A DNA stretch of 64,000 nucleotides from a bacterium (GTDB lineage Bacteria; Patescibacteriota; Minisyncoccia; Phycocordibacterales; UBA6899). Made by a program: the position numbers and the translations under genes. This document shows, one piece after another, positions 4,169 to 62,854 of the stretch (within the stretch, counting starts at the first letter, position 1; each line of letters opens with the position of its first letter). The DNA lies in assembly GCA_021851895.1 (NCBI GenBank), contig JAJZQJ010000005.1, positions 14,572 to 78,571 on the forward strand, in the 5' to 3' direction. Below the pieces are notes generated by a model. It was not told where the DNA came from. It worked only from the letters and a program-made list of their open reading frames with translations, and made no database searches.

Positions 4169-4187
4169 CGCTCGTACTGAGCGCCCC

Positions 4188-4261: not shown

Positions 4262-4520
4262 GAATTTGGGATACAGGTTGCCATGCTGGAGGCATGCGCC
4301 GTCAGCTCACATCAATATTTTCATTCGCAAAGCTCTGAAAATATTGTGTGGCTCCTGGCCGGGCTCGTCGGTCCTCGCATGAGTACTGCTGCGGGCCTGA
4401 CTCCGCCTTGCTCAGCGGAAAATGTTACACATTTTCTTTATCGCTTCGCACTCAAACAAGGCGTACTTGAAGTACGTTGAGTGAGTCGCATGTCGAAGCA
4501 TGGCAAGATGTGCCAAAATA
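4262..4520. repeat. Structured intergenic repeat family, copy 1 (long variant, ~260 nt)
   Basis: Terminal inverted arms caggttgccatgct (4275-4288) and agcatggcaagatg (4498-4511), with outer atttgg/ccaaaat. Shares the conserved 3' core cgtac-loop-gtacg + gagtcgcatg + gaagcatgg with copies at 26.0, 26.3, 58.2 and 59.0 kb. Several internal perfect hairpins. Confidence 0.5.
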
Positions 4521-4529
4521 TGAGGTTTA

Positions 4530-4754
4530 TTAGATATCGCGCACTTCGTGATCCGGATGCTTCTTCATCATCAACATCGCCGCAAGATACAACAACACCC
4601 CCGGAATGATGCCACTAAAGATCGCAAGCACGATATACCCCACGCGAAGGATGCCAGGATTCACTTCGAGCCAATCACCGAGGCCGGCAAAGACACCACC
4701 AGCAACATGTCGTTCGCCTTTCGTATGCCTATATAGCTTTCTCATAACATACAT
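4530..4754 (-). CDS. PspC-domain protein (74 aa)
   Basis: ...RHVAGGVFAGLGDWLEVNPGILRVGYIVLAI... matches the PspC domain pattern and is followed by a TM helix. Confidence 0.55.
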   Translation of the reverse strand: MYVMRKLYRHTKGERHVAGGVFAGLGDWLEVNPGILRVGYIVLAIFSGIIPGVLLYLAAMLMMKKHPDHEVRDI

Positions 4755-9826: not shown

Positions 9827-11495
9827 AACGACGACGTAAGTCGATCACTGCGCCTGGTGCTTGCACGCGAACCACTCTACGTAATTCAAGCGGTGCAGTC
9901 TGTACTGGTCGAACACTATTCGCGCGCACCTCGTTTCGATCAGCACGCGGTGGAGGTAAGGCCAGTGTCGGAGCCCCTCCTTGAGCACCTCTCATTTGAT
10001 AGGAAAGATATGACTTTCCTATGCGCCAGCCACCAATGACAAGCAATAGTATGAACAGCGGAAGCAAAGCGATCGAGAGTGCAGGATTTCTGCCGAGGAA
10101 GCCGAGTATGGATGGAGAAACCTCGACATCGACATGGACAGGAACGTCAGACGAAGCGCCATTCGACTTCGACTGAGTAACCGACAACATATAGTTTCCG
10201 GGAAGCACACTCTCGGTGAGTGTATATGTACCCTTTCCATCACTATCAAGCTGTACGTCATCGACGTGATGTACGGAACCCCCCTCAAAAACGACCTTCG
10301 CAGTCGCACCAGGGATTCCTTTGACATGCGCGACGATAGGACTTGCCTCCCTGAACTTCTCCTGATCAAGCGTAACGATAGGCTGATCAAGCGAAAGTAC
10401 TTCATATTTCACCTTCGACTCACTCCTATTCCCTGCCTTATCGACTGCCGCGATCGTCAGATCATGAGCTCCAAAAACTGTAGAGCGGAAATGATATATA
10501 CCCGAACCATCATCAGTCCAATTCGTTGGTGCCCCTTTGTCGATAGTGAACTCATAATGGTCGAGACCAGAAATCGTATCCGTTGCACTCACACTGAATG
10601 CAATATTTGGATCGTGCTTATCTATGCGTTCAACTTCAGTTGTCGTCCCCAGTAACGGAGCGCTATGATCGATCGCAATTCGAAAGTGTGCGGAGTCCTT
10701 TAATGCACCGCCCGCAGGCGTAACATGAAAGAACCATTCCCCCTCATCAAGATCAGTGATCGTGCGCGTCGTTGTACCTGACGGGATACTCTTATAACCA
10801 AGATCATCCCTATTATGGGAAAGTCCAACAAGTACGTCCTGCACTGCATGTGGGAGCGTCCAAGACATCGTCACTTCACGTAGCGGATACCACAATGATT
10901 CGTCGGGAATCTCCTTTGCGGTGACAGTTAATGCAACCGAGTCTGAAGCCCCGAGCACTTCACCAGAATTCGGTGTTGTCGTCGCATCAGTTGTCGTCGC
11001 ATCAGAATTATTTTCAAATCCTTCTTTTGGAGACACGTCAAAGCTTGCTTGGATGATGCGACCAAGTGTATTACCTCCCGTACCATCCGCCGCTACCGTC
11101 GACGCACCAGAAGTAAATCGTAACTCAGGCTTACCTGGTCGTAGTGCATGTACTTGCAACGTGAGCAGTTCGAGTGTTGATGGAGCACCGCTCTTGATCA
11201 TTCCTGAATAACGCAATACGCCATCCGCAATGCTCGGCGTCACCACCCAAGAGACATCTTGTGAAGTAGAGACGATATCAATGCTTACCAACTTTGGATC
11301 GAATTCAAGCGTCGCCTCGACCGCTGCCAACTTTTCTGGAGATTCAACCATGACACGTACAGGAATCGTCTCATCGACAGCATAACTCCCTGAGGCAGGA
11401 GAGAGCGATAAGGTACTTGATGCGAAAGCAAAGGACGGAAAAAGCGCTATTGAAAAAAGCGCTGCGAGGATCGTTTTCCGTGCACGTGTGTACAT
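9825..11495 (-). CDS. Cell-surface protein with C-terminal TM anchor and Arg-rich tail
   Basis: Signal peptide, Ig-like and Thr-rich beta-rich body, then TM LLPLFILLLVIGGW and a basic cytoplasmic tail. Confidence 0.55.
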   Translation of the reverse strand: MYTRARKTILAALFSIALFPSFAFASSTLSLSPASGSYAVDETIPVRVMVESPEKLAAVEATLEFDPKLVSIDIVSTSQDVSWVVTPSIADGVLRYSGMIKSGAPSTLELLTLQVHALRPGKPELRFTSGASTVAADGTGGNTLGRIIQASFDVSPKEGFENNSDATTTDATTTPNSGEVLGASDSVALTVTAKEIPDESLWYPLREVTMSWTLPHAVQDVLVGLSHNRDDLGYKSIPSGTTTRTITDLDEGEWFFHVTPAGGALKDSAHFRIAIDHSAPLLGTTTEVERIDKHDPNIAFSVSATDTISGLDHYEFTIDKGAPTNWTDDGSGIYHFRSTVFGAHDLTIAAVDKAGNRSESKVKYEVLSLDQPIVTLDQEKFREASPIVAHVKGIPGATAKVVFEGGSVHHVDDVQLDSDGKGTYTLTESVLPGNYMLSVTQSKSNGASSDVPVHVDVEVSPSILGFLGRNPALSIALLPLFILLLVIGGWRIGKSYLSYQMRGAQGGAPTLALPPPRADRNEVRANSVRPVQTAPLELRRVVRVQAPGAVIDLRRR

Positions 11496-25721: not shown

Positions 25722-26012
25722 ATGGCAATAAAGCTTTACGTCGGTGGTCTCCCATATTCTACAACAGATACGGAGCTCAAGGACGCGTTTGCTGCTGCTG
25801 GTACTGTAACGTCAGCTTCGATCGTCACTGATCGCGAGACCCGCCGCTCACGCGGATTTGGTTTCGTCGAGATGGACACCGAGGAGATGGCAAATGCAGC
25901 TATCGAGATGTTTCATGACAAGGAGTTCGGTGGTCGCCGCCTTACGGTGAACATCGCTCGCCCAAAGGAAGATCGCCCACAGCGCGAGTTCCGTCCACGT
26001 CAGCAGTGGTAA
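25722..26012 (+). CDS. RRM-type RNA-binding protein
   Basis: RNP-2 KLYVGGL and RNP-1 RGFGFVEM. Confidence 0.75.
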   Translation: MAIKLYVGGLPYSTTDTELKDAFAAAGTVTSASIVTDRETRRSRGFGFVEMDTEEMANAAIEMFHDKEFGGRRLTVNIARPKEDRPQREFRPRQQW

Positions 26013-26013
26013 T

Positions 26014-26040
26014 TAAATTTCCCCCCTCGGGGGATTTTTA
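26014..26040 (+). terminator. Rho-independent terminator
   Basis: aaatttcccccc-tc-gggggattttt. Confidence 0.6.
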
Positions 26041-26046: not shown

Positions 26047-26167
26047 GGTTGGTAATTTTGGCGCGGCTTGCCGCGCTTCAACATACGCCTCACTCGCCGT
26101 ATCAGCATATGGCTCATTAGAGTTCGCATGTCTCCAGCGCGACAATCGGCATCCAAAATAACCAACC
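26047..26167. repeat. Structured intergenic repeat family, copy 4
   Basis: Perfect 15-bp terminal inverted repeat ggttggtaattttgg ... ccaaaataaccaacc. The interior contains gagttcgcatgtc (compare gagtcgcatgtc in copy 1). Confidence 0.45.
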
Positions 26168-26239: not shown

Positions 26240-26345
26240 AAGACTTCAGAATTTAGATGAAATCATGCCGGTTGGAACCCAGCAAACTCTAGCAAGGCGT
26301 ATAGGTTATACGGCGAACGAGTCATGTGGTGAAATAAGTCAAAGT
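26240..26345. repeat. Structured intergenic repeat family, copy 5
   Basis: gaatttagatgaaatcatgccggttgg ... caaactctagcaaggcgtataggttatacggcgaacgagtcatgtggtgaaataag. Collinear with copy 3; the hairpin cgtata/tatacg versus ccgtac/gtacgg shows compensatory change. Confidence 0.45.
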
Positions 26346-26353
26346 TCGCCAAA

Positions 26354-26878
26354 TCATGAAGTCTTGAATTGTTTCGCGATCGCAGCGCCAAAAGCAGCTG
26401 CCGATGCTGGACCATCGGCAGTGATGACCCTCCCATCGATCACGACGCTTTCGGCAACATAAGTTGCTCCATTTCCTGACAAGATATCCCCAAGCTGCCG
26501 ATCGCCGTTCCACCCCGTCGCACGCACGCCTTCGAGCACATGTGATTTTGCAAGGACTCTGGTAGAGATACAAATGGACCCGTAGGCCATATTCGGAAGT
26601 GCTTTGACCTCAGCAAGGAAACGATACATCGTTGTATTATCCAAAGACCTCAACGCACCCGGTCCTCCGATTAGATAGATGCCATCGACTGCACTCGGTG
26701 AAAGTTCATCGATACTCATATCGACGACCACATGCTCGTTGATATTTGAAATCGCTCCACCACGATGCATAGAGAGCGTGATGACCTTATGACCCGCACT
26801 CTCGAGCACGTGTTTCGTATCGTTGTATTCCTTGCTTTGAAAACCTTCCTCAGCGATGATCAATGCTATGGTTGCCAT
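26354..26878 (-). CDS. DJ-1/PfpI-family protein
   Basis: Start at MATIALIIAEEGF. Class-I glutamine amidotransferase-like fold motifs with the nucleophile-region Cys AYGSICIS. A TATACT hexamer lies just upstream of the ATG. Confidence 0.6.
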   Translation of the reverse strand: MATIALIIAEEGFQSKEYNDTKHVLESAGHKVITLSMHRGGAISNINEHVVVDMSIDELSPSAVDGIYLIGGPGALRSLDNTTMYRFLAEVKALPNMAYGSICISTRVLAKSHVLEGVRATGWNGDRQLGDILSGNGATYVAESVVIDGRVITADGPASAAAFGAAIAKQFKTS

Positions 26879-26946
26879 GAGTATAGTATAACATATGATC
26901 CAAAAGAAAAGTGCCCTCTTTTTCGGAGGGCACGGAATGAACTTCT

Positions 26947-29721
26947 TTACATCGGTTCCGGCAAAATGCTCCGGAAATCGACGTGACGATCCTTTTCGAT
27001 CTGATCCTTCAACCACGACGTAGGGCAATACGTGAGGATGGTGGGACCGTAGTCACACCCCGCCGCAGAAAGCGACGTGAAGACACCAGCATTATGCACA
27101 CGAGCGAAACCGTGGATACTGAACGGATCCTCTGTCGCTGCGGTACCCGACATCACGCCGAGATAACCCGGAGCGAAGATCGCAGCCGCTTTGTGCTTAT
27201 CGCCATAGAACTCGACGATCGATTGCACGCCACGGAAGATTCCGTTGTAATTCCCACGCTGGAGCGCATTGTTCGCGGCCTCAGCGAGACCGAAACCATT
27301 CGCTGCACCATAGCGCGCCGGGCTTCCCCGGAGCGCTATTCCGAACTCGACATCATTGCCCATATCGAGTCGAGCGAGACCGAGTGCGTCCTGGCCATGA
27401 ATCGGTGCTCCGACGAGCGGAGAGCATTCAGCAAGAAGCTCAGGACGATACGCGACGGAAACATACTGCAAAAGATGCGGCTTCATGATCTCGGAGGCAA
27501 TGAAGCCCTCGGAGATGATGCTCTCACCACGAATACCCGAATTCTTCCAGTGATTGCCGTTACCGAAAGCGATCACGGTGAGATCACGAGAATCCTTTAT
27601 GGTACCGAGCACCTCGCTCGCAGGAACGAATCTTGCCGAAGAGTTACAATACGCCTCCACAACACTACCGAGCACATCAGCGTTCGGAATGAGCGTCATG
27701 TAGAGCAACTTCTTGATCTGCTCTTCGGGACGATAGCTCGCCCCCTTCTGCACCTGATCGATGAGAAGATCCCACTGCTCCTTATTCTGCTTCCGCAACT
27801 CCCGAACACTGCTCGAAGTGGACGCCTCCTCGACCTTCTCCTTTCGGATACGCTCGAGGGCGGGCACGGAGAGCTTGTGCTCGTGCGGCTGCAAATAATA
27901 GGGATGATTTGCGCCGTGGCTCAAATCATCAGGGATGAAGTACGCATGCACACGTCCCTTCCCATGATGCTCACGCATGATGTGGAAAATAGCTCCTGTG
28001 AGGTCGAAGAGACCATACTTCGGGGAGCGCACATGCCACTCCCAAGCGTGCCCCACATGGAGGTCACTGGTCAGCATGATCGTGAAATACTTCTCACGAA
28101 TCGACTCGATCTCCTTGCGGCGGGCGCTCAGCATGCCGCCGAGATACCGGAGCGTACTGATCCGATACGACGACACGCGGACGAGACCCTCGCGCAAACT
28201 GAGCGCGAACATGCCGGGCTCAAGAAGTGACTCGCGGAAGAACTGCTCCACCGGAGTACGTTTTTCGAGCATGGCTTCTCGCTCGAGATGTGCGCGCACG
28301 TGCTGTACGTCACAAGTCGGTGGCGGAGTGCACACATAGACGAAACGCGGCTTGTCCGCACACGTGTCATTGAGCAGCGTCACCGCCCCATAGAGAGACC
28401 AGCGGTTTGCAAGGATCTCGACATCCGCAAGCTCACCAGAAAGCGTCAGCTTTTGAAGGTGATTGCGCATTTCGGAATCAAGGAGTTTCGCACTCCTCTT
28501 ATCCCAACCTGCCTCACTCACACGCCAAGTCTTCTTTTTGTGGCCGAAGACCGCCTGTCCACTCCCGACATAGAGTGCTCCGGGAATGGCATCGAGCAGT
28601 TTCTGCACGATGTAATCGTGCAGTCGCTTGTACGCCCGACGGCGATTATCCTTGGAGACGTAAGTCTGCAACGTACGTGCGATCTGATCATCGATCGCAG
28701 CCAACTGGTCCTTGAAGTCGCGGTTCTCGGGATCGGCCTTGATCAACGCGTTCTTTCGAGCACGTTCATCATTAAGACGCTTCACCTCTCGCAGTACGTT
28801 GTACCTGATCTCATAATGCGCACATCGATCGATGAGCTCGCGCTCGCCAGAGGTGAGCATGAGGTAGATCGGCGTGCTGAAACGAGGGGTGACCCCAGAC
28901 TTGCTCGTATCCCTGAAGACCTTCTTGATCCCCGAAAGGAGATTCTCGAGATCCTCGGCGAAGGTCGTGAAAATGGGCGTATCCGGCTCATCCTTCATCA
29001 GAGACTCGACGCGACGACGATAGGCCATCGGAAAGACCTGGGGGTCGATGTCGAGCGAGCTCATACGAGCGATGCTGTTTGCCGTCGCGGCACTTGCCTG
29101 ACGAACGTCCAGGTGGAGCAAGCCACCACAGATGACGACGGCGTATTTGCCGCGGCTTGCGACCTCCATCGCGCAACGCGGAACGAGCTGTGTCATTCGC
29201 GCGTCATAAGGAAGACCGAACATCAGCGACTGCAGAGGGACGATACCCTCGAGCGAGTCAGGAATGACGATCGGTTTCTCGAGCGACGACGAGAGCACGG
29301 GCACTTCAGGAACGGACTGACCGTCCGGAATGACCCGAAAAAGTCCATGCACATGTGCGGGTGGGTTCTTCGGAAGTCCCCTTCCGCGCATCCACCGCAT
29401 CTTCGCCCGAAGGAGCGACAACGGCAGAGTACTGAAATACTTCGCGATGTTCTCCTCGGGCTCTTCGTTTTTGTAGTGCGCCTCGAGCAATTTCGTGCGC
29501 TCCTTCGTCCACACGAGCGCGCCGAGGTGTTCTTGTACGGCAGACTTCGTGAAAGGAAATTCCTTCGAGAAGAGACGTACAAGATCAGGGCGACTCGCGA
29601 TGGCCGCATGCAACGCATTGGCAGGATGATCGTCCCTCAACGTACCGACCGAAATCGCACGCTGAATGAACGAGAGCAGCTTCTTCGACTTCCAGGGATC
29701 GACTGGCTTCTTCGTAGACAT
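26947..29721 (-). CDS. Large hypothetical protein (924 aa) with possible degenerate metallophosphoesterase motifs
   Basis: Long uninterrupted ORF. The C-terminal half has D-x-H (TSDLHVGH), FIPDDLSHG and GNGNHW, reminiscent of calcineurin-like phosphoesterase motifs I-III. The N-terminal ~550 aa has no recognisable family. Confidence 0.5.
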   Translation of the reverse strand: MSTKKPVDPWKSKKLLSFIQRAISVGTLRDDHPANALHAAIASRPDLVRLFSKEFPFTKSAVQEHLGALVWTKERTKLLEAHYKNEEPEENIAKYFSTLPLSLLRAKMRWMRGRGLPKNPPAHVHGLFRVIPDGQSVPEVPVLSSSLEKPIVIPDSLEGIVPLQSLMFGLPYDARMTQLVPRCAMEVASRGKYAVVICGGLLHLDVRQASAATANSIARMSSLDIDPQVFPMAYRRRVESLMKDEPDTPIFTTFAEDLENLLSGIKKVFRDTSKSGVTPRFSTPIYLMLTSGERELIDRCAHYEIRYNVLREVKRLNDERARKNALIKADPENRDFKDQLAAIDDQIARTLQTYVSKDNRRRAYKRLHDYIVQKLLDAIPGALYVGSGQAVFGHKKKTWRVSEAGWDKRSAKLLDSEMRNHLQKLTLSGELADVEILANRWSLYGAVTLLNDTCADKPRFVYVCTPPPTCDVQHVRAHLEREAMLEKRTPVEQFFRESLLEPGMFALSLREGLVRVSSYRISTLRYLGGMLSARRKEIESIREKYFTIMLTSDLHVGHAWEWHVRSPKYGLFDLTGAIFHIMREHHGKGRVHAYFIPDDLSHGANHPYYLQPHEHKLSVPALERIRKEKVEEASTSSSVRELRKQNKEQWDLLIDQVQKGASYRPEEQIKKLLYMTLIPNADVLGSVVEAYCNSSARFVPASEVLGTIKDSRDLTVIAFGNGNHWKNSGIRGESIISEGFIASEIMKPHLLQYVSVAYRPELLAECSPLVGAPIHGQDALGLARLDMGNDVEFGIALRGSPARYGAANGFGLAEAANNALQRGNYNGIFRGVQSIVEFYGDKHKAAAIFAPGYLGVMSGTAATEDPFSIHGFARVHNAGVFTSLSAAGCDYGPTILTYCPTSWLKDQIEKDRHVDFRSILPEPM

Positions 29722-30678: not shown

Positions 30679-30713
30679 CCCTATACCCTATTCCCTATTC
30701 CCTATTCCCTGGT
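30679..30713. repeat. Heptamer tandem array (CCCTATT)x5, complement of family A
   Basis: ccctata ccctatt ccctatt ccctatt ccctggt. Ends at a TATTAT hexamer 6 nt before the hisS ATG. Confidence 0.85.
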
Positions 30714-36482: not shown

Positions 36483-37646
36483 TTAGAACGTTGGGGTTGC
36501 CACGTAAATGAGATTCGTGTGGTAATCCGTCGCTGCCTCCTGGAGTGGGCTGATCTCAGTCTTGTAGTAGACAGTTGTCGTACCAAAGCCCTGACCGATA
36601 CCCGCTGTCGAAGATGCATTTCCGAACACAGATACTGGCGTTCCGCGAACGAAATCACCGGTATAGAGCTGTCCGCCAAATGAGTAGATACCACCCTGTG
36701 GGATCGCAGCGTCATCAGATGACACACCGATATGGCCCCATGTCGTATCATCGTTCACATTAGCGAGCGGTGCTGCCCATGCAGCTGGAGCTGATGCTGA
36801 GAATCCATCGATGATCGCACCATTCTGTGACTGGAATGGCTGATCAGAGACGACCGTAACATTGAAGCCCTGACGAGCATTGGTCTTCACCTGGAGTTCC
36901 TGTGCAGCAGTTTGTGCAACATTCACTGGGAGAATACCGTAATTGATTGTCGTAGTGCTCGAGTCTGTCGTGATCGCACCATACGTCGTTGGTGTCGTAC
37001 TTGCAACACCCGAGATAGTGAAATCAAAGATTGGATCAACCTGTGCGATAACATCAACATTCTCGACCAATGCAACGCGAATACGTGTCGACTGATTCGA
37101 TGTTATGTTGAAGAGCTCGATCATGTAATTCGCAGCCGTAGGTGTCGATGGCTGTGGATTCAAGATCATGTTGCCTGCAGTGTTACCGAGAGTGACCGTA
37201 TACACCGTAGAGGATGACATGACGCCATGACCTGCACACGGAGTAAGATCAACTTGGTCTGCAACCGCGACCGCAGAGAAATCGTCGGTTCCACAAGTTG
37301 CACCTACTGTCTTTCCAGCAACCGTGATGTCCGCAGCAGTCAATGTACTTGCGTCAAAGTTTGATGCATCCGGATTCGGATAGAACTTGAAGCTGAGTGC
37401 AGTACCTTCTGGAATATCGACCTTCGGCTGGAATACGAACTTGTGCGTAGAATACTGATTCAATGCACCAGTAGTGATACGCGCGTTGTTCAACGTATCG
37501 CTAACGTTTTGGATTGCGATTGTCATCGCAGATGCAGTGTGTGCTGCAAAGATCGCAGAAACCGTACTGATAACCATGAGAACACTGAGGAAAGCAGTGA
37601 ATGCCTTCTGTTCTCTGAAGTAAGCAAACAAATTTTTGTAATTCAT
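36483..37646 (-). CDS. Secreted Ig-like surface protein, paralog A, with C-terminal ...NLIYVATPTF domain
   Basis: Start at MNYKNLFAYFREQKAF plus a signal peptide. 55-60% identical to the 38026 gene. The C-terminal ~200 aa is homologous to the C-terminus of the 1788-aa protein. Confidence 0.55.
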   Translation of the reverse strand: MNYKNLFAYFREQKAFTAFLSVLMVISTVSAIFAAHTASAMTIAIQNVSDTLNNARITTGALNQYSTHKFVFQPKVDIPEGTALSFKFYPNPDASNFDASTLTAADITVAGKTVGATCGTDDFSAVAVADQVDLTPCAGHGVMSSSTVYTVTLGNTAGNMILNPQPSTPTAANYMIELFNITSNQSTRIRVALVENVDVIAQVDPIFDFTISGVASTTPTTYGAITTDSSTTTINYGILPVNVAQTAAQELQVKTNARQGFNVTVVSDQPFQSQNGAIIDGFSASAPAAWAAPLANVNDDTTWGHIGVSSDDAAIPQGGIYSFGGQLYTGDFVRGTPVSVFGNASSTAGIGQGFGTTTVYYKTEISPLQEAATDYHTNLIYVATPTF

Positions 37647-38025
37647 AAGAACTATACAAGCAGCGTTATGGGACACTGCTTAGGCGAATAAGCGTGGGCG
37701 CAAAAGTGTAATCGCAAATGCAAATACACCAGTGCTTTGGCGTTTTTCGACGACGCCATGGAAAGTGGAAAACCCGCAAACCTATGCGCCCCAGCGGATA
37801 CATACATCTACTGGCGGAGGATTTCCTCCTACTTGTAATTATACTACATATGTGAACAACTTACTGATAAACCTGTGGACAAGTACTAAAAGTGAATGCA
37901 TAGCATGGGGATAACACCTGCTCATCTACGTTGACGATCGGAAATAAGATGAAACCTCCCCCACCTGAACGGGAAAAACGCCCCCGTAGGGACGTTTTCT
38001 CCGTTTGCTTTCTTTAGGATTATGA

Positions 38026-39210
38026 TCAGAACGTCGGTGTAGCGACGTAGATGAGATTCGTGTGATAATCGGTTGCAGCCTCCTGAAGTGGAGTGACTTC
38101 CGATCGGTAGAAGACCGTAGTCGTACCAAGACCAACACCGAAACCTGCGGTCGACGACGCATTACCGAAGACAGACACAGGGATTCCCCGGACGAAGTCT
38201 CCGGTCCAATGGTCGCCACTAAGCGCCGCAGATCCAGGAATGTCCGCGTCATCACTCGAAACTGCGATGTGCCCCCAAGTCGTATCATCGCCAAGCAATG
38301 CTGCTGGTGCTGCATATGCCGTCGGTGCCCCTACAGTTGCAGGGAAACCATCGATGATCGCGCCGTTTGAAGACTGGAATGGCTGATCCGCAACGACGGT
38401 GACATTAAAGCCCGTCTTTGCATTCGTAATGACACGAAGTTCCTGCGCAGCAGTCTCCGGTGTGTTCACTGGGAATGCACCATAGGCGATGGTCGAGGTG
38501 GATGAGTCGATCGTAATCGGCTTACCATCGATCGTCGTACTACTTGCAACCCCTGATACTGTGAAATCAAATGCGGGATCAACAGATGCAGAAACCAAGA
38601 CACTGCTCACCAGTGCGACCAGGGTCGATGTGAACTGATTCGATGGACCAGCGATGTCTACCTGATAGGTGTATGCATCATACTGAGCTCCAGGTGCCGG
38701 GTTCGCGACCAGATGACGAGTCGAACTGCCGAACGTTACCGAAAATGGCGACGTCGAAGCGATCGTATTTCCTGGGCAGACTGAAAGTGCAAGCACGGAT
38801 GCACCTGGCGTGAAAGAGTAGTTCTCGCTGCCCGTACAGCTTGCGCCAACGATCTTGCCAGGAACATTCACGTCGAGCGCATCGATACCCGATGCATCGA
38901 AATTCGTTCCCGTATTCCCTCTTCCCATGCTTGCGTCATCAGCACGGAAAGTGAACGTGAGCGACTGACCCGCAGTGACATCGACCTTTGGCGTCAAGAC
39001 AAAGGTGTGTGCAGACGAATAGGTCGTCCCCGCCGTAGATAAACGCGCATTACTCAATGTGTCCGTCACATTGCCAAATGCGAGATATGCAGCCGAAGCG
39101 ACATGCGCCTCAAACGCAGCTGCAGATGAACCTATGATCACAATAATAGACAGAAAAGCGGAAAACGCCTTCTGCTCCCTAAAGAAAGCAAGGGATTGTG
39201 AATATTTCAT
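38026..39210 (-). CDS. Secreted Ig-like surface protein, paralog B
   Basis: Start at MKYSQSLAFFREQKAF. Tandem duplicate of the 36483 gene including a ~350-nt upstream region. Confidence 0.55.
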   Translation of the reverse strand: MKYSQSLAFFREQKAFSAFLSIIVIIGSSAAAFEAHVASAAYLAFGNVTDTLSNARLSTAGTTYSSAHTFVLTPKVDVTAGQSLTFTFRADDASMGRGNTGTNFDASGIDALDVNVPGKIVGASCTGSENYSFTPGASVLALSVCPGNTIASTSPFSVTFGSSTRHLVANPAPGAQYDAYTYQVDIAGPSNQFTSTLVALVSSVLVSASVDPAFDFTVSGVASSTTIDGKPITIDSSTSTIAYGAFPVNTPETAAQELRVITNAKTGFNVTVVADQPFQSSNGAIIDGFPATVGAPTAYAAPAALLGDDTTWGHIAVSSDDADIPGSAALSGDHWTGDFVRGIPVSVFGNASSTAGFGVGLGTTTVFYRSEVTPLQEAATDYHTNLIYVATPTF

Positions 39211-39471
39211 TAAAAACAAGTTAAACAGCGTTATGGGACACTGTTTAAACGTATAAGTGGGCGCAAAAGTGTGCCGAGTGGCACGCTGCGAGGCATCGAC
39301 AGATGCCGAAAGTGGAAAACCCGCTGCTTATGCGCACAAGAAGATCATTCGATCGACTTGTGGAGGACGGCCTCCTACATGCAATTATACTACAGATGTG
39401 AATAAATATGTGTATAAATATGTGGACAACACACAAAAAAACTGCACAACCTGTGGATAGGTCGCGCAGTA

Positions 39472-54902: not shown

Positions 54903-54957
54903 GAGTGAAGTAGTTGTGAGAATTTCCTTCCCACTTCTCACTTCTTACTTCTCACTA
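54903..54957. repeat. Heptamer array (ACTTCTC/ACTTCTT)x3-4 plus inward GTGAGAA units, complement of family B, beginning at the pheS stop codon
   Basis: gtgaagtagttgtgagaa-tttccttccc-acttctc acttctt acttctc act. On the minus transcript this reads TAG-TGAGAAG-TAAGAAG-TGAGAAG-TGGGAAG. Confidence 0.8.
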
Positions 54958-55773
54958 TATTGTATCGAACTGATCCACGAGGCGAAGGTCGCCATTGTAA
55001 AGTGTGCGAATGTCGGGAATTCCCCACTTCAACATGACGAAACGATCGACACCGCCACCGAAAGCAAAGCCCTGGTACTTATTCGGATCAATACCGCCAG
55101 CGCGAAGCACGTCAGGATGCACCATACCCGCACCCATCACTTCGATCCACTTTTCCACCTTTCCCTTATCATCTGTCCAGCCGATGTCGATTTCAACTGA
55201 TGGCTCGGTGAATGGGAAATATGATGGGCGAAAACGCACCATCATCGGTCGTCCGAAGAGGCGTGCAAAAAAGAGTTCGAGCATACCTTTCAAGTTCGCA
55301 AGCGAAACATCTTTACCGATCATGAGACCTTCGAACTGATGGAATTGCGCCTCGTGGGTGGCATCTGTTGCTTCATAGCGAAACACCTTACCCGGTGCAA
55401 TGATGCGGATCGGCGCACCCTGCTTCTCCATATGACGTATCTGGACCGGTGATGTATGCGTACGCAAAAGAAGACGCTCGAGTCCGCGAGTATCTTTCAA
55501 CCAGAACGTATCCCACATATCACGTGCGGGGTGATCTTTCGGAATATTGAGCGCATCAAAGTTGTAGTGTTCGGTCTCGATCTCTGGGCCATCTGCGATA
55601 CTGAAGCCCATAGAGCCGAATATGCTGTTGATGTCGCGCATCATGATCGAGACAGGATGCATATGCCCGCGCTCTCCCCCCTTTCCAGGGAGCGTTGCGT
55701 CAAGGCCAATTTGCTCTCGTGAATACATAGTGAATTCATCATAGCACACGGAGAAACATGCGTAAAATGGCAT
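54955..55773 (-). CDS. pheS: Phenylalanyl-tRNA synthetase alpha subunit (short form, 272 aa)
   Basis: Class II core (FRPSYFPFTEPS, GAGMVHP) is present. Start set at MPFYACF (55773) because the upstream extension overlaps a conserved plus-strand paralog gene. The N-terminal coiled-coil extension is absent. Confidence 0.75.
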   Translation of the reverse strand: MPFYACFSVCYDEFTMYSREQIGLDATLPGKGGERGHMHPVSIMMRDINSIFGSMGFSIADGPEIETEHYNFDALNIPKDHPARDMWDTFWLKDTRGLERLLLRTHTSPVQIRHMEKQGAPIRIIAPGKVFRYEATDATHEAQFHQFEGLMIGKDVSLANLKGMLELFFARLFGRPMMVRFRPSYFPFTEPSVEIDIGWTDDKGKVEKWIEVMGAGMVHPDVLRAGGIDPNKYQGFAFGGGVDRFVMLKWGIPDIRTLYNGDLRLVDQFDTI

Positions 55774-55848
55774 TTTTTCAACGTTTCCTTGATGTGCAAG
55801 ACTTACCATGCTAGCCTGACTGTAGAGAAAGTTCACCAGAAAGGACCC

Positions 55849-56403
55849 ATGATCAGCACCCCTTCCCCGCGCCGCATTGTCAAAGTCTCCCTCGACTCGA
55901 TCGTCAGTTTCGACAACGAGGCAATACTCGCTGCGAAGAATAGCGACGAAGCGTGTCGCATCGCGGAACACCTCCTCGCTCGCCTCGAAAAGATACGAGC
56001 ACCAAGACGTTACTTCGAGCTCGCACTCAAGAACAGCCTGATGAAGAGACCGGAAATGCAGAAGCGCCACTACTTCATCATGCATGACCGAAGCGTACTC
56101 AAGGTCGCAGTCCGGTTCGGGAGGCACGCCACCACGAAAACGCGCGAGAAGCTGATCACTATCGCAGGCTACTTCGGGATGTATCGTCTTCTTAAAGAGG
56201 TCATCTCTGATTTGCGTAATACCGTGATGACGAAGCAGGAATTCCTTGCAATGACCGTCCATTTCAGCGTGTCGAGCGAAACGATGGATGAGCACGCGCT
56301 CGGAATGATTCGCGATGCTGAAATCGCACACGGTGAAGCATTCGCTAAAACGATCGAGGACGCTCTCGCTACTCGATACCAAGAATGGAACGAACTTCCA
56401 TGA
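55849..56403 (+). CDS. Hypothetical helical protein, paralog 1 of a tandem pair
   Basis: RBS agaaagga. 184 aa, alignable with the next gene (GRHATTKTREKLITIAGYFGMYRLLKEV versus GKHANMEIKERIVLVARRFRDYKLLKLTV). Confidence 0.45.
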   Translation: MISTPSPRRIVKVSLDSIVSFDNEAILAAKNSDEACRIAEHLLARLEKIRAPRRYFELALKNSLMKRPEMQKRHYFIMHDRSVLKVAVRFGRHATTKTREKLITIAGYFGMYRLLKEVISDLRNTVMTKQEFLAMTVHFSVSSETMDEHALGMIRDAEIAHGEAFAKTIEDALATRYQEWNELP

Positions 56404-56413
56404 CATGTCCTTG

Positions 56414-56436
56414 CCGCACGATCGTGCGGTTTTTTC
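56414..56436 (+). terminator. Rho-independent terminator
   Basis: ccgcacgatcgtgcgg followed by tttttt. A TTGCAA-17-TATGGT promoter follows. Confidence 0.55.
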
Positions 56437-56509
56437 TTGCAAAGTTTTATGTCTCATGTTATGGTATCCCTCCCGAGATAGTTCTTTAACCACCACAAGG
56501 AGCCCATAC

Positions 56510-57079
56510 ATGGGAAGCTCTCTTCGCGCCAATAGAAGCGGCCTTATGCCGCTACGCACACACCTCGACTTCGACATGAAGTCGATTCTCGAGATGAGTC
56601 CGAGGATCGGACTCGCCCTCGCTCAGCACACCATGCGAAAGCTCGAGATCATGGAGGCGCCCGACTGGGCCTTCGAACGATTCGCAGAGCACTGCCTCCT
56701 TGAGCTCCCGGAGTTCCAATCCGGCTGGATCATGCAGGCACAATCCAAGGACTTCTTCATGCTTCTCCTTTCGTGTGGAAAACATGCGAATATGGAGATC
56801 AAGGAGAGGATCGTCCTCGTCGCGCGCAGGTTCCGAGACTACAAGCTGCTCAAGCTGACCGTGGGAACACTGCTCGTAAGGCCGCTCTCCCCTTTCGAAT
56901 TCGAAGAGGCGGCTGAGCTTCTCCATATCACGAGCCGTGATTTCAGTGAGACCGCGAGCCTCATCACGATCGATGCGTTCAAGACACATGGCCTTGAGCT
57001 CCGATCGAAGATCAAGGAGATCCTCAAGAAAAAGGCCGACGTCGAACTCCTCGAGGAAACCGCCATTGCGGCGGTGTGA
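56510..57079 (+). CDS. Hypothetical helical protein, paralog 2
   Basis: Perfect RBS aaggag 7 nt upstream, own promoter and terminator. Confidence 0.5.
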   Translation: MGSSLRANRSGLMPLRTHLDFDMKSILEMSPRIGLALAQHTMRKLEIMEAPDWAFERFAEHCLLELPEFQSGWIMQAQSKDFFMLLLSCGKHANMEIKERIVLVARRFRDYKLLKLTVGTLLVRPLSPFEFEEAAELLHITSRDFSETASLITIDAFKTHGLELRSKIKEILKKKADVELLEETAIAAV

Positions 57080-57141: not shown

Positions 57142-57163
57142 GAGCCACCTGCAGGACTTGAAC
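57142..57163 (-). repeat. Partial copy of the tRNA-Thr 3' end (att-like scar)
   Basis: gagccacctgcaggacttgaac versus the tRNA gagccacctgtcaggcttgaac. Confidence 0.5.
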
Positions 57164-57192
57164 AAAACTCGGCTCGCGCACCTGGGGGGGTG

Positions 57193-57209
57193 TGGAGCCA
57201 CCTGTAGGC
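57193..57209 (-). repeat. Second partial copy of the tRNA-Thr 3' end (CCA + acceptor, 17 nt)
   Basis: tggagccacctgtaggc, identical to the tRNA 3' terminus over 13 nt. Confidence 0.5.
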
Positions 57210-57467
57210 TTTCATGTCGCGATGCCGCGCACCCCAGAGGGGCCCCGCACGGCCCTGCTCCTCGATCTCCTTACAGGAGCTGTACACCTTTTGGATCTTT
57301 TGTTTCGAAGACTCACAAAAGTTCTCAAAAGGTCTTGCGCTCTCGCTCCCATAAGAATAGGGCCCATGAGCGAGAGCTCACCCACAGTGCTCGACGGAAT
57401 CCTTTTGCGGCAAAAGGATTCCTGCTCTCCTAGACGGGGAAGGTACCCCTTCCCCGACCCCCTTCCA

Positions 57468-57486
57468 TTCAAGCCTGACAGGTGGC
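57468..57486 (+). repeat. Inverted 19-nt copy of the tRNA-Thr T-arm and acceptor 3' strand
   Basis: ttcaagcctgacaggtggc is the exact reverse complement of 57529-57547. The two copies flank the tRNA terminator hairpin. Confidence 0.6.
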
Positions 57487-57493
57487 CCAAAAA

Positions 57494-57523
57494 CAAAAAC
57501 CCCCTTGCGGGGGTTTTATGTTT
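57494..57523 (-). terminator. Rho-independent terminator of tRNA-Thr
   Basis: aaaaccccc-ttgc-gggggtttt followed by atgttttt. The hairpin is symmetric. Confidence 0.6.
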
Positions 57524-57524
57524 T

Positions 57525-57600
57525 TGGAGCCACCTGTCAGGCTTGAACTGACGACCTACGGTTTACAAAACCGTTGCTCTACCAACTGAGCTAAGGTGGC
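57525..57600 (-). tRNA. tRNA-Thr (anticodon UGU), CCA encoded
   Basis: Reverse complement reads GCCACCTTAGCTCAGTTGGTAGAGCAACGGTTTTGTAAACCGTAGGTCGTCAGTTCAAGCCTGACAGGTGGCTCCA. 7-bp acceptor, D-arm GCTC/GAGC, anticodon loop TTTGTAA, T-loop TTCAAGC. Confidence 0.85.
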
Positions 57601-57649: not shown

Positions 57650-58111
57650 TTACATTGTCGATCCATCCTCGATCTTGTGATCGGGGCGTAATTCCGCAAA
57701 AGATGCCCTTTGCTTCTTCTCGACGAGTGGTTCATGGACTGCTCGACGGTGTGCAACCTTCTGACGAAATTCCTCTTTGTGCTCTACGATACGCTTGAGG
57801 AAAAACGACACTGCACCACCATGCGGAACCGCCGGATAACCGAAGAGTCGCGCATACGTCCTATCTCGCATAGCGAGCATTCGAGCGAGGACATGCGTCG
57901 TTGCGTTATGGACATAAGGCATGAAATCATGCCACAGGTCTACAAGCGCGTGGATGATATCCTGATAGGTCAAGATATAGAGATCCCACCAAGATGCAGG
58001 AATTCCACGCGAAGATGACACGCGTGACGAGCGTACTCCGAAAAGCGCCGCAACGAGAGTGCTGAGCACAAGGAGCAAGCCGACGACCCAAATTGTGATG
58101 AGAGATGTCAT
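57650..58111 (-). CDS. Membrane-anchored hypothetical protein (153 aa)
   Basis: N-terminal TM helix then a soluble domain. Preceded by structured-repeat copy 2. Confidence 0.45.
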   Translation of the reverse strand: MTSLITIWVVGLLLVLSTLVAALFGVRSSRVSSSRGIPASWWDLYILTYQDIIHALVDLWHDFMPYVHNATTHVLARMLAMRDRTYARLFGYPAVPHGGAVSFFLKRIVEHKEEFRQKVAHRRAVHEPLVEKKQRASFAELRPDHKIEDGSTM

Positions 58112-58152
58112 ATTTTTTTCCCCTCTTAGATGTGCAACACACTAAGAATGAG

Positions 58153-58262
58153 GATTTTTGGACGCAGGTTGCCATGCTAGAGACTCACGAACGCTAGCGA
58201 GATGGGCTCGGTGCCCATTGAGCGAGTCGTGAGTTGAAGCATGGTAAGATGCACCAAAAAGA
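58153..58262. repeat. Structured intergenic repeat family, copy 2
   Basis: ttttggacgc-caggttgccatgct ... agcatggtaagatg-gcaccaaaaa, with core cgaacgctagcgag-[atgggc..gcccat]-tgagcgagtcgtgag. A G.U wobble only makes sense on the plus strand. Confidence 0.5.
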
Positions 58263-58270
58263 CCATTCAG

Positions 58271-58870
58271 TTACTTGCCAACGACGAAGCGAGAAAAACG
58301 TGCGAGCTCAGTCTTTTCTCCGAACTTCTGTACTGCACCCTCGATGAGCTGCGCGATCGTAATGTCCGGATTTTTTACATAAGGCTGCTTCATAAGCACC
58401 TGCTCTGCAAAGTATGCTGAGATCTTTCCATCGAGAGCCTTCTGCTTGATCTCCTCTGGCTTCCCTGCCATCTGCTTATCTACCTCCTCCTTGAAGAATT
58501 CGATAGCCTTTGCGCGCTCTACCTCCTGGATATCTTCCTCAACGCGGTACTTCGGAGCGACTGCTGCGACATGCATAGCAATATCATATGCGAGCTGCTT
58601 GAAATCCTCGTTCTTCGCGACGAAATCCGTCTCACAATTGAGCTCTACCATCGCACCGACGGTGGAATTGCCGTGAATATATGCTGCGACGACACCTGAA
58701 CCAAGCGTACGGTCCGCCTTCTTCGTAGCGATCTCCGCAGACTTCTTGCGAAGTGCGATGCGTGCCTTCTCCATATCACCGCCCGCGTCCTCAAGTGCCT
58801 TCTTGCACTGCATGATCGCGACATTCGTCTCGTCACGCAACTGCTTCACCATGTCCATGCTGATTTCCAT
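58271..58870 (-). CDS. tsf: Elongation factor Ts
   Basis: N-terminal UBA-like MVKQLRDETNVAIMQCKKALEDAGGDMEKA plus the dimerisation core. Confidence 0.85.
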   Translation of the reverse strand: MEISMDMVKQLRDETNVAIMQCKKALEDAGGDMEKARIALRKKSAEIATKKADRTLGSGVVAAYIHGNSTVGAMVELNCETDFVAKNEDFKQLAYDIAMHVAAVAPKYRVEEDIQEVERAKAIEFFKEEVDKQMAGKPEEIKQKALDGKISAYFAEQVLMKQPYVKNPDITIAQLIEGAVQKFGEKTELARFSRFVVGK

Positions 58871-58924
58871 AGAAATTTAATTTAATGGCAAAAACGGCAA
58901 CGCCATTTTCACCGAAGATCTAAT

Positions 58925-59074
58925 TTTTTGGAGTTACTCTTTGCAACTCTTTTTTAGCGAGGATTTCGGGATGAGATTTGCCGTGCCGGAGGTGTGCGAA
59001 CTCTAGTGAGCCGTACGGGTTGTACGGTGAACGAGTCGCATGCCGAAGCACGGTAAAGATCGCCCGAAATAACG
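58925..59074. repeat. Structured intergenic repeat family, copy 3 (in the rpsB-tsf spacer)
   Basis: gatttcggg-atgagatttgccgtgcc ... gcacggtaaagatc-gcccgaaat. The arm gccgtgc/gcacggt carries compensatory changes relative to gccatgc/gcatggc in copies 1 and 2. Core gcgaactctagtgagc-[ccgtac..gtacgg]-tgaacgagtcgcatg. Confidence 0.5.
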
Positions 59075-59081
59075 CTAAAAA

Positions 59082-59774
59082 CTACTTCTGGGCGATACCA
59101 GCCTTCAACGATGTGGCTACAGTATCAAGGAAATACTTCACGCTCTCACGTGCTGAATCATTTGCAAGCACTGGGAATGCGATCTTTGAGATATCGTTAT
59201 CTGTGTTCGCGAGTGCGATCACTGGGATGCGAAGCTTTATCGCCTCAGTGACAGCGATCTCCTCTGCACGTGCGTCAACGACGACAACAGCTGCAGGAAG
59301 AGACTCGAGTGCTGCGATGCCACCGAAGTCTGCTTTCAGGCGAGTAAGCTCGCGCTCAAGCATGAGTCGCTCTTTCTTCGTATACTTTTGCACGAGATCA
59401 CCCTTAGCAAACTGCTCAGTGAGATTCTTCATGCGTGCGATACGCTTCTTGATCTCTACGAAATTCGTAAGCGTACCTCCGAGCCAACGGCTTGCGACGT
59501 ATGGCATCGAGACGATCGTTGCTGCATCGACAACGAGATCTGCGATCTCCTTCTTTGCACCTACGAAGAGCACGGTCTTGCCCTGCTTTCCGAGTTCACG
59601 AACGGCTGCGCTCGCAGCTTCGAGCTGCTTTGCGGTCTTTGTAAGATCGATGATGTCTACGCCATTCTTTGCGCCAAACAATTGTGAGCGCACAGAGGCA
59701 TGGCGGCGAGGGCGCCCATATCCAATGTGCGCACCGGCATTAAACAAAGCATCAATTACGGTATTTTCTGACAT
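59082..59774 (-). CDS. rpsB: 30S ribosomal protein S2
   Basis: Start at MSENTVIDALFNAGAHIGY with RBS agaggaaag. S2 family throughout. Confidence 0.85.
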   Translation of the reverse strand: MSENTVIDALFNAGAHIGYGRPRRHASVRSQLFGAKNGVDIIDLTKTAKQLEAASAAVRELGKQGKTVLFVGAKKEIADLVVDAATIVSMPYVASRWLGGTLTNFVEIKKRIARMKNLTEQFAKGDLVQKYTKKERLMLERELTRLKADFGGIAALESLPAAVVVVDARAEEIAVTEAIKLRIPVIALANTDNDISKIAFPVLANDSARESVKYFLDTVATSLKAGIAQK

Positions 59775-59905
59775 ATTCTTTCCTCTATTGTTTTTTTGAT
59801 AATGGAGTAAGACTAACACATTTATCCAGACTTTGCAACATTTTTTGACCAACAGCCAAAGACGAAAAAGCGCTCGAATGAGCGCTTTTTCCGAGTGACA
59901 CCCAA

Positions 59906-61087
59906 TTAAAGATTCGAGACGCGTTCCCCGAATTTAAGACTGTATTTCTTGTTTTGGGACTGTTTCTTGAGCAATTTATCCATCGCCCACGTCAGCGTGA
60001 ACAATATAAGGAAATATATCGCTCCCGAGCGGCTGATTGAGGGCAACTTATTCGCAGAAAGGTAACCAAGAACACCTGAGATCACACCAATACTCGTGAT
60101 CGTCTGCAGTGACTTGAGATTATTGCTCGTACTCTGACTCTTGATCTCAACGAGGTTGCCGATCGCTGAAGACAGGTAGTCCTTGGTCATCTTCCAGATC
60201 TCTTTGATATACGCGAGCGTATCCGTAAGTGTCTCAAACTTGTACTCAAAGAGAGAAACGAGGTCTTTCTCTATATCGAGGTGTTTTGCGATCGACGACC
60301 GTGTATTCACATATGAACCCATCTGATTGATACGATTCTCGATGAGGCTAATGGTCTTCTGATACCCATCAAGCCTCCCACGAATCCCCTCGACGTCCTT
60401 CCCTTTTACCGTCTGTGCCTCTTTGACCTCAGAGATCTCCTCCCAAATAGAGCGATGGATCGCGAGGTACTTTTCGAGTTGATCCTTGAACTCCCTGAAG
60501 AAGATCTGCGTTTCGATCAGATTGGTCATTGACTCGTTCTTTTTACCTCCCACGCTAACGAAGATATATTTCGGAGTCTTGAAGACAGTGATACTACTGC
60601 TCGAGAACTTTGCATACACTTTACCGAATATGGACTCGTCAGGCGCAAACTGCTTTATTTTATTCTCATAAGTACTTACCACAATAGGATGGATGGTCTT
60701 GATGTTTGCCAACACCTTCGGAGTCGGAGCGCCCAAAGAGAAAATATAAGATATTGCTGGATTGAACTTCAGATCGAGATAATCTTTGAGCTCATGTTCT
60801 GTTTCCGCGATATCATCTGTACTTTTCTCCAAAATATAGAGCCCATCCTCATAGTAACGGATCTCGATACCCGTAGATGTTATCGCCTTTACGTATTCAA
60901 GAGAGCTCGATTCCCTCGTCACCTGTACGAGATCGAGATCGGTTTGCAACCGCTTCAACTCATCTTTCGACAGTTCAAGGTGCGAATATCCGTTTGCGAA
61001 AAGATTATAGACCTCGCTCATGTGCAACGTCGTACGCTGGTACCACCCCCCATAAGTGATTGTGTATTTATTTTCTGGAATTGACAT
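59906..61087 (-). CDS. Hypothetical protein, AT-rich gene with two C-terminal TM helices
   Basis: 393 aa. Markedly lower GC than its neighbours. Helical N-terminal region and a C-terminal TM hairpin. No family recognised. Confidence 0.5.
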   Translation of the reverse strand: MSIPENKYTITYGGWYQRTTLHMSEVYNLFANGYSHLELSKDELKRLQTDLDLVQVTRESSSLEYVKAITSTGIEIRYYEDGLYILEKSTDDIAETEHELKDYLDLKFNPAISYIFSLGAPTPKVLANIKTIHPIVVSTYENKIKQFAPDESIFGKVYAKFSSSSITVFKTPKYIFVSVGGKKNESMTNLIETQIFFREFKDQLEKYLAIHRSIWEEISEVKEAQTVKGKDVEGIRGRLDGYQKTISLIENRINQMGSYVNTRSSIAKHLDIEKDLVSLFEYKFETLTDTLAYIKEIWKMTKDYLSSAIGNLVEIKSQSTSNNLKSLQTITSIGVISGVLGYLSANKLPSISRSGAIYFLILFTLTWAMDKLLKKQSQNKKYSLKFGERVSNL

Positions 61088-62562: not shown

Positions 62563-62621
62563 GGGTATTGGGTATTTCCCTATTCCCTATTCCCTATTCC
62601 CTATTCCCTTCTTATTACTTC
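62563..62621. repeat. Composite heptamer array (GGGTATT)x2 + (TATTCCC)x5 + TTCTTAT-TACTTCT, covering the rpmE stop codon
   Basis: On the minus transcript: AAG-AAG-TAA-TAAGAAG-(GGAATAG)x4-GGAAATACCCAATACCC. A-family and B-family units are adjacent. Confidence 0.8.
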
Positions 62622-62854
62622 TTTGCTGTCTTCTTTGCTGCAGTCTTTGCTGCGGTAGCGGCAACACGTGCCTTGAACTTCTCCATGCGGCCTGCGGTGT
62701 CCATCACCTTCTCCTGGCCGGTGAAAAGTGGATGGCACTGCGAACAGATCTCAATGTTGAGCTCCTGTGAAGGAGAACCAACGGTGAACTCTGCACCACA
62801 AGCACAAGTTACCTTTGCCTGCTCGAAGTACTTTGGGTGGATATCCGTCTTCAT
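62615..62854 (-). CDS. rpmE: 50S ribosomal protein L31 (Zn-ribbon type)
   Basis: MKTDIHPKY...CACGAEF...CSQCHPLFTG. Confidence 0.8.
   Translation of the reverse strand: MKTDIHPKYFEQAKVTCACGAEFTVGSPSQELNIEICSQCHPLFTGQEKVMDTAGRMEKFKARVAATAAKTAAKKTAKK

Follow-up and report, generated by a model that had tools for sequence, protein, structure and literature searches.

Here, we describe a family of ~120-nt palindromic repeats, which we call rods, that lie directly behind the stop codons of genes in a narrow clade of Paceibacterota, starting from a 64,000-nt stretch of the contig JAJZQJ010000005.1 (from a Candidatus Paceibacterota bacterium of the Patescibacteria; assembly GCA_021851895.1, positions 14,572 to 78,571; hereafter the window, i.e., this stretch at its full length) in which two copies fill the spacers on either side of tsf, the gene for elongation factor Ts. 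The copies form one family across the window and related metagenome contigs, selection has acted on the folded structure of one strand, they follow a common rule of placement and orientation relative to the neighboring gene, and they have been both gained and lost between close relatives. We read the rods, at a probability of roughly 0.45, as a non-autonomous mobile palindromic repeat that is recognized as a folded single strand and occupies the position of a terminator. The genomes of Patescibacteria (the candidate phyla radiation, CPR) are tiny and tightly packed, and few mobile elements or regulatory RNAs have been described in them. A family that couples covariation of RNA grade on one strand with strict placement and orientation at stop codons and with turnover between near-identical strains provides a handle on the persistence of selfish DNA in minimal genomes, or else on how transcription units are delimited there. 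Rods also adjoin phylogenetic marker genes (ribosomal proteins and translation factors) and could add to assembly breaks in metagenome-assembled genomes; two of the contigs compared (L039 and L047; L numbers denote the loci compared with the window) end within a rod copy.

The cluster in which the repeats were noticed runs on the minus strand. It comprises rpsB (ribosomal protein S2, 230 aa; 59082-59774), assigned by tblastn to S2 loci in 24 genomes and by PF00318 on the L040 and L043 homologues; tsf in a short, 199-aa form (58271-58870), with 6123 PF00889 homologues of which several are named elongation factor Ts, an identical protein not being on record; and a 153-aa gene (57650-58111) that belongs to no Pfam family and is conserved among relatives, beyond which lies a tRNA-Thr gene (57525-57600). 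The rpsB-tsf spacer measures 211 nt and the next one, downstream of tsf, 159 nt, with one plus-strand rod copy in each. Copy c3 (58955-59080; covariance-model bounds 58957-59072), in the former, scores 115.2 bits (E=6e-29) and has its 3′ end 1-9 nt from the rpsB stop codon (59082-59084, minus), and copy c2 (58148-58266; covariance-model bounds 58148-58263, hairpin 58152-58264), in the latter, scores 116.4 bits and ends 4-7 nt from the tsf stop codon (58271-58273, minus). As plus-strand RNA, c3 folds with a minimum free energy (MFE) of -69.0 kcal/mol (z=-8.9) and c2 (58150-58268) with -58.6 kcal/mol (z=-8.2), and in both cases 0 of 200 shuffles folded as well; the minus strands reach -49.9 and -49.2 kcal/mol, respectively, and each copy has 4-5 G.U pairs on the plus strand vs 1 on the minus. 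The original prediction had placed structured-repeat copies in both spacers of this cluster, with a pairing that favors the strand antisense to the operon, and coordinates, model scores, folds far below shuffles, and G.U counts all bear this out. Its ~25-bp closing helix is likewise present, with its length understated, the whole element being a rod of ~45-50 bp with fixed internal loops. What is not supported is a view of the elements as a conserved feature of the operon: L040 and L041, whose Tsf is 97% identical, and L001 have no element there, and at least 17 other genes carry the same rod.

The window holds exactly five rod copies, whether searched with a covariance model built from the window copies (R1) or with one built from 28 copies (R2). 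In addition to c2 and c3, these are a long form, c1 (4256-4526, plus), which abuts the stop codon of a minus-strand PspC-domain gene (4530-4754), and an inverted pair near 26 kb. Of this pair, c26- (26048-26165, minus; 74.8 bits with R1 and 92.8 bits with R2; orthologue at L033 29-147) is antisense to a plus-strand RRM-protein gene (25722-26012) and lies beyond a terminator at 26015-26037, and c26+ (26244-26362, plus; 92.5 bits) has a partly decayed outer helix (MFE only -29.9 kcal/mol) and overlaps the end of a minus-strand DJ-1/PfpI gene (26354-27028), its last codons and stop codon included. The orthologue of c26+ stands at L033 388-506, where an additional tandem copy occupies 262-378. As a side observation, the RRM gene next to this inverted pair encodes a 96-aa protein with a single RRM, an association that is possibly coincidental.

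Outside the window, ~35 copies were found in related Paceibacterota metagenome contigs. A degenerate core pattern drawn from four copies, which had 0 chance matches in 100 window shuffles, recovered 15 metagenome contigs, ten of them holding 13 strong copies, and contigs of relatives reached through Tsf, cyclophilin, and EF-P homologues yielded ~20 further copies; covariance-model matches of 74-124 bits were obtained in 12 further metagenome or relative loci. Rfam (release 15) had no match to the rod: at gathering score the whole window gave the tRNA-Thr only, and at E≤10 nothing relevant appeared over 58050-59150 and 4180-4560. The range of the family is narrow, because neither model matched in 24 rpsB loci from other Patescibacteria, a set that includes L001 (S2 83% identical). 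The rod is an undescribed ~120-nt repeat family confined to a narrow Paceibacterota clade. A viral origin was considered and rejected, as scans of viral contigs gave no match.

The alignment of 28 copies resolves the unit into an A-rich leader followed by the rod, and the pairing of the rod is strongly conserved. Standard pairs form in 94.6% of 1173 pair cells, compared to 75% after column shuffles and 32-43% with slid partners, and changes on both sides occur at 35 of the 42 pairs. Part of this covariation consists of few alleles counted many times (the apical hairpin is mainly CCGTAC/GTACGG or ATGGGC/GCCCAT); the middle helix occurs in more than 12 different paired versions across copies. 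Unpaired positions are almost invariant and purine-based on the folding strand, whereas helix sequences vary and co-vary, the fixed features being a bulged A, a GGA/GA internal loop, a second bulged A, a UA bulge, and a tandem GA/GA beside a near-fixed G.U. Neither half of the rod folds independently, i.e., the element is a single rod, and it contains no open reading frame (ORF) of note.

The pairing is also strongly one-sided. The pair cells comprise 997 Watson-Crick pairs, 113 G.U, and 14 A.C (the last being G.U on the opposite strand), or 65 G.U vs 13 A.C if two near-fixed G.U columns are left out, and of 18 copies whose two strands were folded, 17 favor the folding strand over its complement by 9-22 kcal/mol. 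Because G.U outnumbers A.C by 113 to 14, the strand antisense to the neighboring gene is taken as the selected fold. The standard account of strand skew invokes cytosine deamination on the more exposed strand, which would enrich G.U on the gene-sense strand; as deamination would thus predict the opposite bias, we infer selection on one folded strand. Together, these data are best read as structural selection acting on the folded form of one strand, namely that antisense to the gene.

Several known motifs were compared with these conserved features, and none was assigned. The arrangement CUAGCGAG-stem-UGAGCGAGUC recalls the hammerhead core (CUGAUGA-stem-GAAA...GUC) with G and A swapped, and a hammerhead is ruled out also by the two-way rod topology, which is not a three-way junction, and by the lack of an Rfam match. 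Neither a K-turn nor a loop E was assigned, since the loops consist of a bulged G with tandem G.A and of a UA bulge two pairs from tandem G.A, without the three-nucleotide-bulge geometry of a K-turn. A promoter mimic inside the stem was considered on account of a TTGCCA and rejected, as this has no -10 box 17 nt on.

Placement relative to genes is similarly constrained. Of 19 independent sites, 17 have the rod pointing its 3′ end at the stop codon of a gene to which the folding strand is antisense (17 antisense vs 2 sense; two-sided binomial probability ~7e-4). The genes at antisense sites encode ribosomal proteins (S2, L31, S13, L6, and S6), translation factors (Tsf, RF1, and EF-P), and SSB, GyrB, RecA (a weak match), a sigma-70-family factor, PspC, DJ-1/PfpI, the RRM protein, and two unnamed products. 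The gap between rod and stop codon is 0-13 nt at most sites; the base of the hairpin sometimes takes in the stop codon, and at the DJ-1 site the last codons of the gene are supplied by the rod itself. A canonical terminator or another repeat stands between stop codon and rod at four sites (c26-/L033, L040 gyrB, L049 efp, and L049 recA). Two intact copies are sense-oriented and directly upstream of the next start codon, one at L044 13066-13184, flanked by a tRNA methyltransferase gene and a conserved ORF of 26 aa (the corresponding window site is empty), and the other at L050 3955-4073, in the S6-SSB spacer, where the L049 and L027 copies are antisense. In that spacer, the leader AATAAT(A)TTAAGG precedes the rod in either orientation (L049 and L050). 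More generally, the A-rich leader accompanies the rod on the folding strand and reads as a T-rich tail in gene sense, where many copies are followed by a run of 3-6 T (e.g., TTTTTGTT); at least five T follow the hairpin in about one third of copies, c2 and c3 not among them. The flanking A and T runs can pair together, and a terminator scanner did not call rods as terminators.

As an alternative to a rule based on genes, we considered orientation by replication. GC skew makes the plus strand lagging window-wide, and four of the five window copies fold on it, but c26- and one of two neighboring L050 copies that face opposite ways break the rule; replication direction does no better than gene direction, and the two are inseparable in these data. 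Separately, the 26-aa ORF near the sense-oriented L044 copy is rich in Lys and Arg (MANKKEKQAQRQKAKRAGKTPNTRMR) and is followed by a terminator both in the window (2320-2400, plus) and in L044 (12972-13052, minus), with 23 of 26 residues conserved, and is probably a real small gene; the L044 rod stands directly upstream of it.

The strand preference and the placement rule would both suit a function of the folding strand at the RNA level. In this explanation, a serious rival that we regard as less probable than mobility, the folding strand would be a functional RNA whose purine loops are read by an RNA-binding protein. It might be a small cis-antisense RNA that carries the stable 5′ rod as a handle and runs into the 3′ end of the neighboring gene, or a guard terminator that stops antisense transcripts, arising from convergent read-through or from a bidirectional promoter of the next gene, before they reach the coding region. 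The excess of G.U over A.C, the invariant purine-only loops on the antisense strand, and the 17 of 19 antisense sites speak for it, as does a strand asymmetry that RNA energy parameters make far larger than DNA ones do. At its 3′ end, the rod reaches up to the stop codon, and a U-rich stretch complementary to the stop and to C-terminal Lys codons comes next; each rod of the convergent pair near 26 kb faces transcription from the opposite gene, and the flanked genes are mostly highly expressed genes of translation and replication. However, a promoter consensus scan found no sigma-70-type promoter upstream of rods, and 29 aligned leaders share no motif at a fixed distance, only A-richness; a cis-antisense RNA would likewise be left with no conserved terminator. 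A needed regulator would not be expected to be patchy among near-identical relatives or to decay, two intact copies are sense-oriented, and a terminator hairpin would need no invariant internal loops.

A second explanation places the function in the gene-sense mRNA, where the rod would act as a terminator or attenuator, as a block to 3′ exonucleases, or, in the main idea of the original prediction, as an RNase III site that segments the polycistronic mRNA. The Correia and ERIC repeats provide precedents for mRNA hairpins that are open to RNase III cleavage or that change transcript stability. Long stems, double-stranded for the most part, form on both strands of the rod. The rod sits exactly where relatives have small post-stop terminator hairpins (e.g., behind tsf in L040 and behind L31 in L043), the T runs described above follow many copies, and the gene-sense RNA still folds at -38 to -61 kcal/mol, so that RNase III cleavage of the operon mRNA through the weaker complement hairpin (predicted at -40 to -50 kcal/mol) is possible. 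Against this stand the selection on the other strand, with A.C mismatches and pyrimidine-rich, pyrimidine-pyrimidine loops in the sense RNA; the mutational bias, which would be expected to favor sense-strand G.U when the opposite is seen; the poor T-tails of c2 and c3; and the close relatives that manage the same operon without a rod. Moreover, because some copies lie beyond a canonical terminator (c26-, L033, L040 gyrB, and L049 efp), a role in the mRNA cannot explain all copies. Such a role is plausible for co-transcribed copies such as c2 and c3 and cannot apply to those behind terminators, and as an account of the family we consider it unlikely.

Occupancy of the same sites was then compared among contigs whose Tsf is 96-97% identical to that of the window, and it varies from site to site. 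After L31, the rod is present in L040 and L042 and absent from L043 and the window; after prfA, it is present in L040, L043, and L037 and absent from L042 and the window; after S2, it is present in the window (c3) and, as orthologues, in L042 and L043, and absent from L040; and after Tsf, it is present in the window (c2), in L042 and L043 (orthologues 97% identical), and in L030, and absent from L040 and L041. In L040 and L041, the rpsB-tsf spacer (166 nt) and the spacer downstream of tsf (51 nt) are rod-free and of different sequence, and L001, the nearest GTDB representative, has no rod. A conserved rpsB-tsf operon feature is ruled out by these three loci. Since the rod comes and goes between close relatives, it looks mobile rather than like a built-in operon signal.

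Individual copies record further turnover. The prfA site holds different rod subtypes in L037 and L040, rod remnants persist at L037 and L044, and tandem copies in the same orientation occur in L033, L042, and L039; in the L042 tandem, the copy farther from the stop codon is decayed (28 bits), as if fresh copies enter next to the stop codon. Between the S2-site orthologues of the window and L042, three double compensatory changes have accumulated in the outer stem, and the L043 copy at that site has the inner helices of the adjacent Tsf-site copy, which suggests conversion between copies. At rod-free sites, the whole spacer is different and usually has a small terminator hairpin right after the stop codon; in L040, a second, unrelated repeat family takes that place.

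This second family (GAACGCCCCTTCGGGGACCAGGCGTTCTTGCCCGTAGATG..., two hairpins, including GTAG) occurs at L040 9835-9905, L041 1-59, L049 10577-10616, and L028 1029-1092 and is absent from the window; it starts right after the S2 and EF-P stop codons, in a genome that is rod-free at the S2 and Tsf sites. L001 has yet another element, a different compound hairpin of ~70 nt right after the rpsB stop codon (10700-10770), followed by a promoter-like stretch, TTGCTATAAT, before tsf. In the window itself, a tandem heptamer (minus-strand GGGAATA, plus-strand CCCTATT) stands at 62578-62623 after the L31 stop codon, where relatives have a rod, and a second array of the same heptamer lies at 30679-30710. 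Across the group, hairpin elements seem to be drawn to the place right behind the stop codon.

From the gain and loss of copies we infer mobility as the cause of the pattern, and the same goes for the intermediate, the enzyme, and the sensing of gene direction that such mobility would involve. A protein encoded elsewhere, perhaps a transposase or a recombinase, would read the rod as folded single-stranded DNA or RNA, in a manner comparable to RAYT nucleases on REP hairpins or integron integrases on the bottom strand of attC, and would copy or move it to positions just behind stop codons, the usual site of terminator hairpins in this lineage. The folding strand would almost always end up opposite the coding strand, and the host mRNA would then carry the weaker complementary hairpin with its T-rich tail, which could serve as a terminator, could stabilize the 3′ end, or could merely be tolerated.

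Several observations weigh against reading the rods as mobile repeats. No transposase, integrase, reverse transcriptase, or RAYT is present among the ~40 ORFs of the window in a Pfam scan, nor do these enzyme classes occur among the precomputed Pfam assignments for related loci, ~150 kb in all, and this reading offers no mechanism by which insertion would sense gene direction. Comparisons of filled and empty sites gave no clean junction, so no target sequence could be defined, and no direct repeat that could represent a target-site duplication stands beside any of 29 copies. As whole spacers differ at empty sites, replacement of spacers by homologous recombination could produce the same patchwork without transposition. 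Copies inside one genome are only 62-75% identical, and there has therefore been no recent burst. Finally, the strand asymmetry is 10-19 kcal/mol with RNA parameters and only 4-5 kcal/mol with DNA parameters, and this larger asymmetry, together with ~10% G.U, gives the rod more the look of a functional RNA than of a DNA site; the DNA value being so small, energetics cannot tell RNA from single-stranded DNA as the selected molecule. In the search for an autonomous partner, isolated rod ends in all compared loci were limited to the repeats themselves and one fragment (L037 446-461).

If the rods are mobile repeats, the REP/REPIN sequences provide a close parallel in kind. Both are short, non-coding, multicopy extragenic palindromes that are often found after stop codons and inside operons, and they share recognition as a folded single strand, vertical inheritance with slow turnover, and a possible effect on mRNA 3′ ends. 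In the 28-copy alignment, however, the rod lacks a conserved GTAG or CGTC head, it is a continuous unit of ~120 nt where REP doublets consist of 20-40-nt hairpins, and a RAYT gene was not found in the available sequence. To our knowledge, a strict orientation relative to the neighboring gene has not been described for REP sequences.

The orientation rule has a counterpart in the attC sites of integrons, i.e., imperfect palindromes of ~60-140 nt that conserve structure and unpaired bases, of which one strand folds productively, and that lie directly 3′ of an ORF with the folding strand antisense. Rods share that arrangement, and the resemblance concerns their possible working rather than membership. 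On this basis, the rods might be sites of an integron-like or Xer-like system, in which a tyrosine recombinase acts on the folded bottom strand and cassette-like arrays arise, and the conservation of structure instead of helix sequence, the unpaired bases fixed on one strand, the position directly after the stop codon with a folding strand complementary to the coding strand, and runs such as L31-element-prfA-element and S2-element-Tsf-element are all as such a system would have them. Nevertheless, we consider it very improbable, because rod ends read CAGATTTTGG...CCAAAATATG, with no AAC/GTT (RYYYAAC/GTTRRRY) boxes and no R/L consensus, and neither an integrase nor an attI was found in any compared locus. 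The flanked genes are essential housekeeping genes (S2, Tsf, L31, RF1, S6, SSB, etc.) in a fixed order, such that the elements vary and the genes do not, and core motifs of the rod (GAACTCTAGCGAG and TGAGCGAGTCG, for example) show far higher conservation than attC sequence. Rods thus fail the defining tests of both REP/REPIN and attC, resemble the two in kind or in logic, and fit best as a mobile repeat.

Other repeats and hairpins were compared as well. The Correia/NEMIS elements of Neisseria and the ERIC/IRU elements of enterobacteria are long-hairpin repeats of 100-150 bp that lie in intergenic or intercistronic positions, are co-transcribed, and have known or proposed roles as RNase III targets, as terminators, or in mRNA stability, and they are the model behind the idea of mRNA segmentation. 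Rods have no sequence relationship to them and no visible TA target duplication, the better-folding rod strand is absent from the mRNA, and rod helices co-vary strongly around invariant purine loops. With intrinsic terminators, rods have in common a hairpin right after the stop codon, A-rich on one side and T-rich on the other, in the same position as the small terminators of relatives, but the rod has ten times the typical stem length and a family sequence with fixed loops, and it sometimes stands beside a separate canonical terminator. From miniature inverted-repeat elements of DDE transposons, rods differ in that their ends are inverted repeats only because the whole unit is a hairpin, and in that no flanking direct repeat accompanies any of the 29 copies.

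One copy departs from the common architecture. At its P2/P3 junction, the long form c1 carries a non-coding insert of 151 nt (4298-4448) that contributes three extra hairpins, and at the corresponding site of L044 and L047 stands the plain short form. The final 46 nt of this insert match L039 6280-6325, at the contig end, with 98% identity, and the rod around it is clearly less well conserved in that alignment; EF-P of L039 is only 76-82% identical to that of its nearest relatives on record, the genome of L040 among them. No further long-form copy besides the L039 fragment was found in the loci compared. The insert may be a mobile piece nested in the rod, or else a domain under strong conservation.

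A more far-reaching view would make the rods a hitherto unrecognized, single-strand-specific class of genetic element in CPR bacteria, either as folded-DNA sites for a new recombinase or transposase that targets the place behind stop codons in a direction-aware manner, or as structured RNAs at the 3′ ends of genes with high expression. As part of this view, the RNAs would be bound by a dedicated protein through the tandem G.A and bulged-purine motifs and would guard these gene ends against antisense transcription, and the 151-nt nested domain, near-identical in two genomes whose EF-P is ~76-82% identical, would represent the active or master form. We regard this view as doubtful.

Some neighboring features of the window deserve mention in their own right. 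By the tRNA-Thr gene, two upstream fragments (57143-57215 and 57461-57555) resemble its 3′ end (GAGCCACCTG...), and an inverted copy forms a ~95-nt palindrome around a terminator-like hairpin beside the tRNA; this arrangement looks like leftover attachment sites of an element that had integrated at tRNA-Thr. The gene content between tRNA-Thr and pheS differs from that of L040. The pheS ORF itself (54955-56577, minus) spans 540 aa, of which only residues 292-537 form the class II synthetase core, compared to 257 aa for the L040 homologue; its long N-terminal part is probably non-coding and overlaps the region without an L040 counterpart. On the other side of the cluster, a 393-aa gene of no Pfam family (59906-61087, minus) lies between a VF530 gene and rpsB, with a terminator-like bidirectional hairpin after it (~59870-59895); as the VF530 gene and rpsB are adjacent in L040 and L042, the 393-aa gene is a lineage-specific insertion. 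Farther away, two tandem 397-aa paralogues, also of no Pfam family (36483-37676 and 38026-39219, minus), share ~70-76% DNA identity and have repeated flanking segments ~1543 nt apart, the repeats extending up to 39405.

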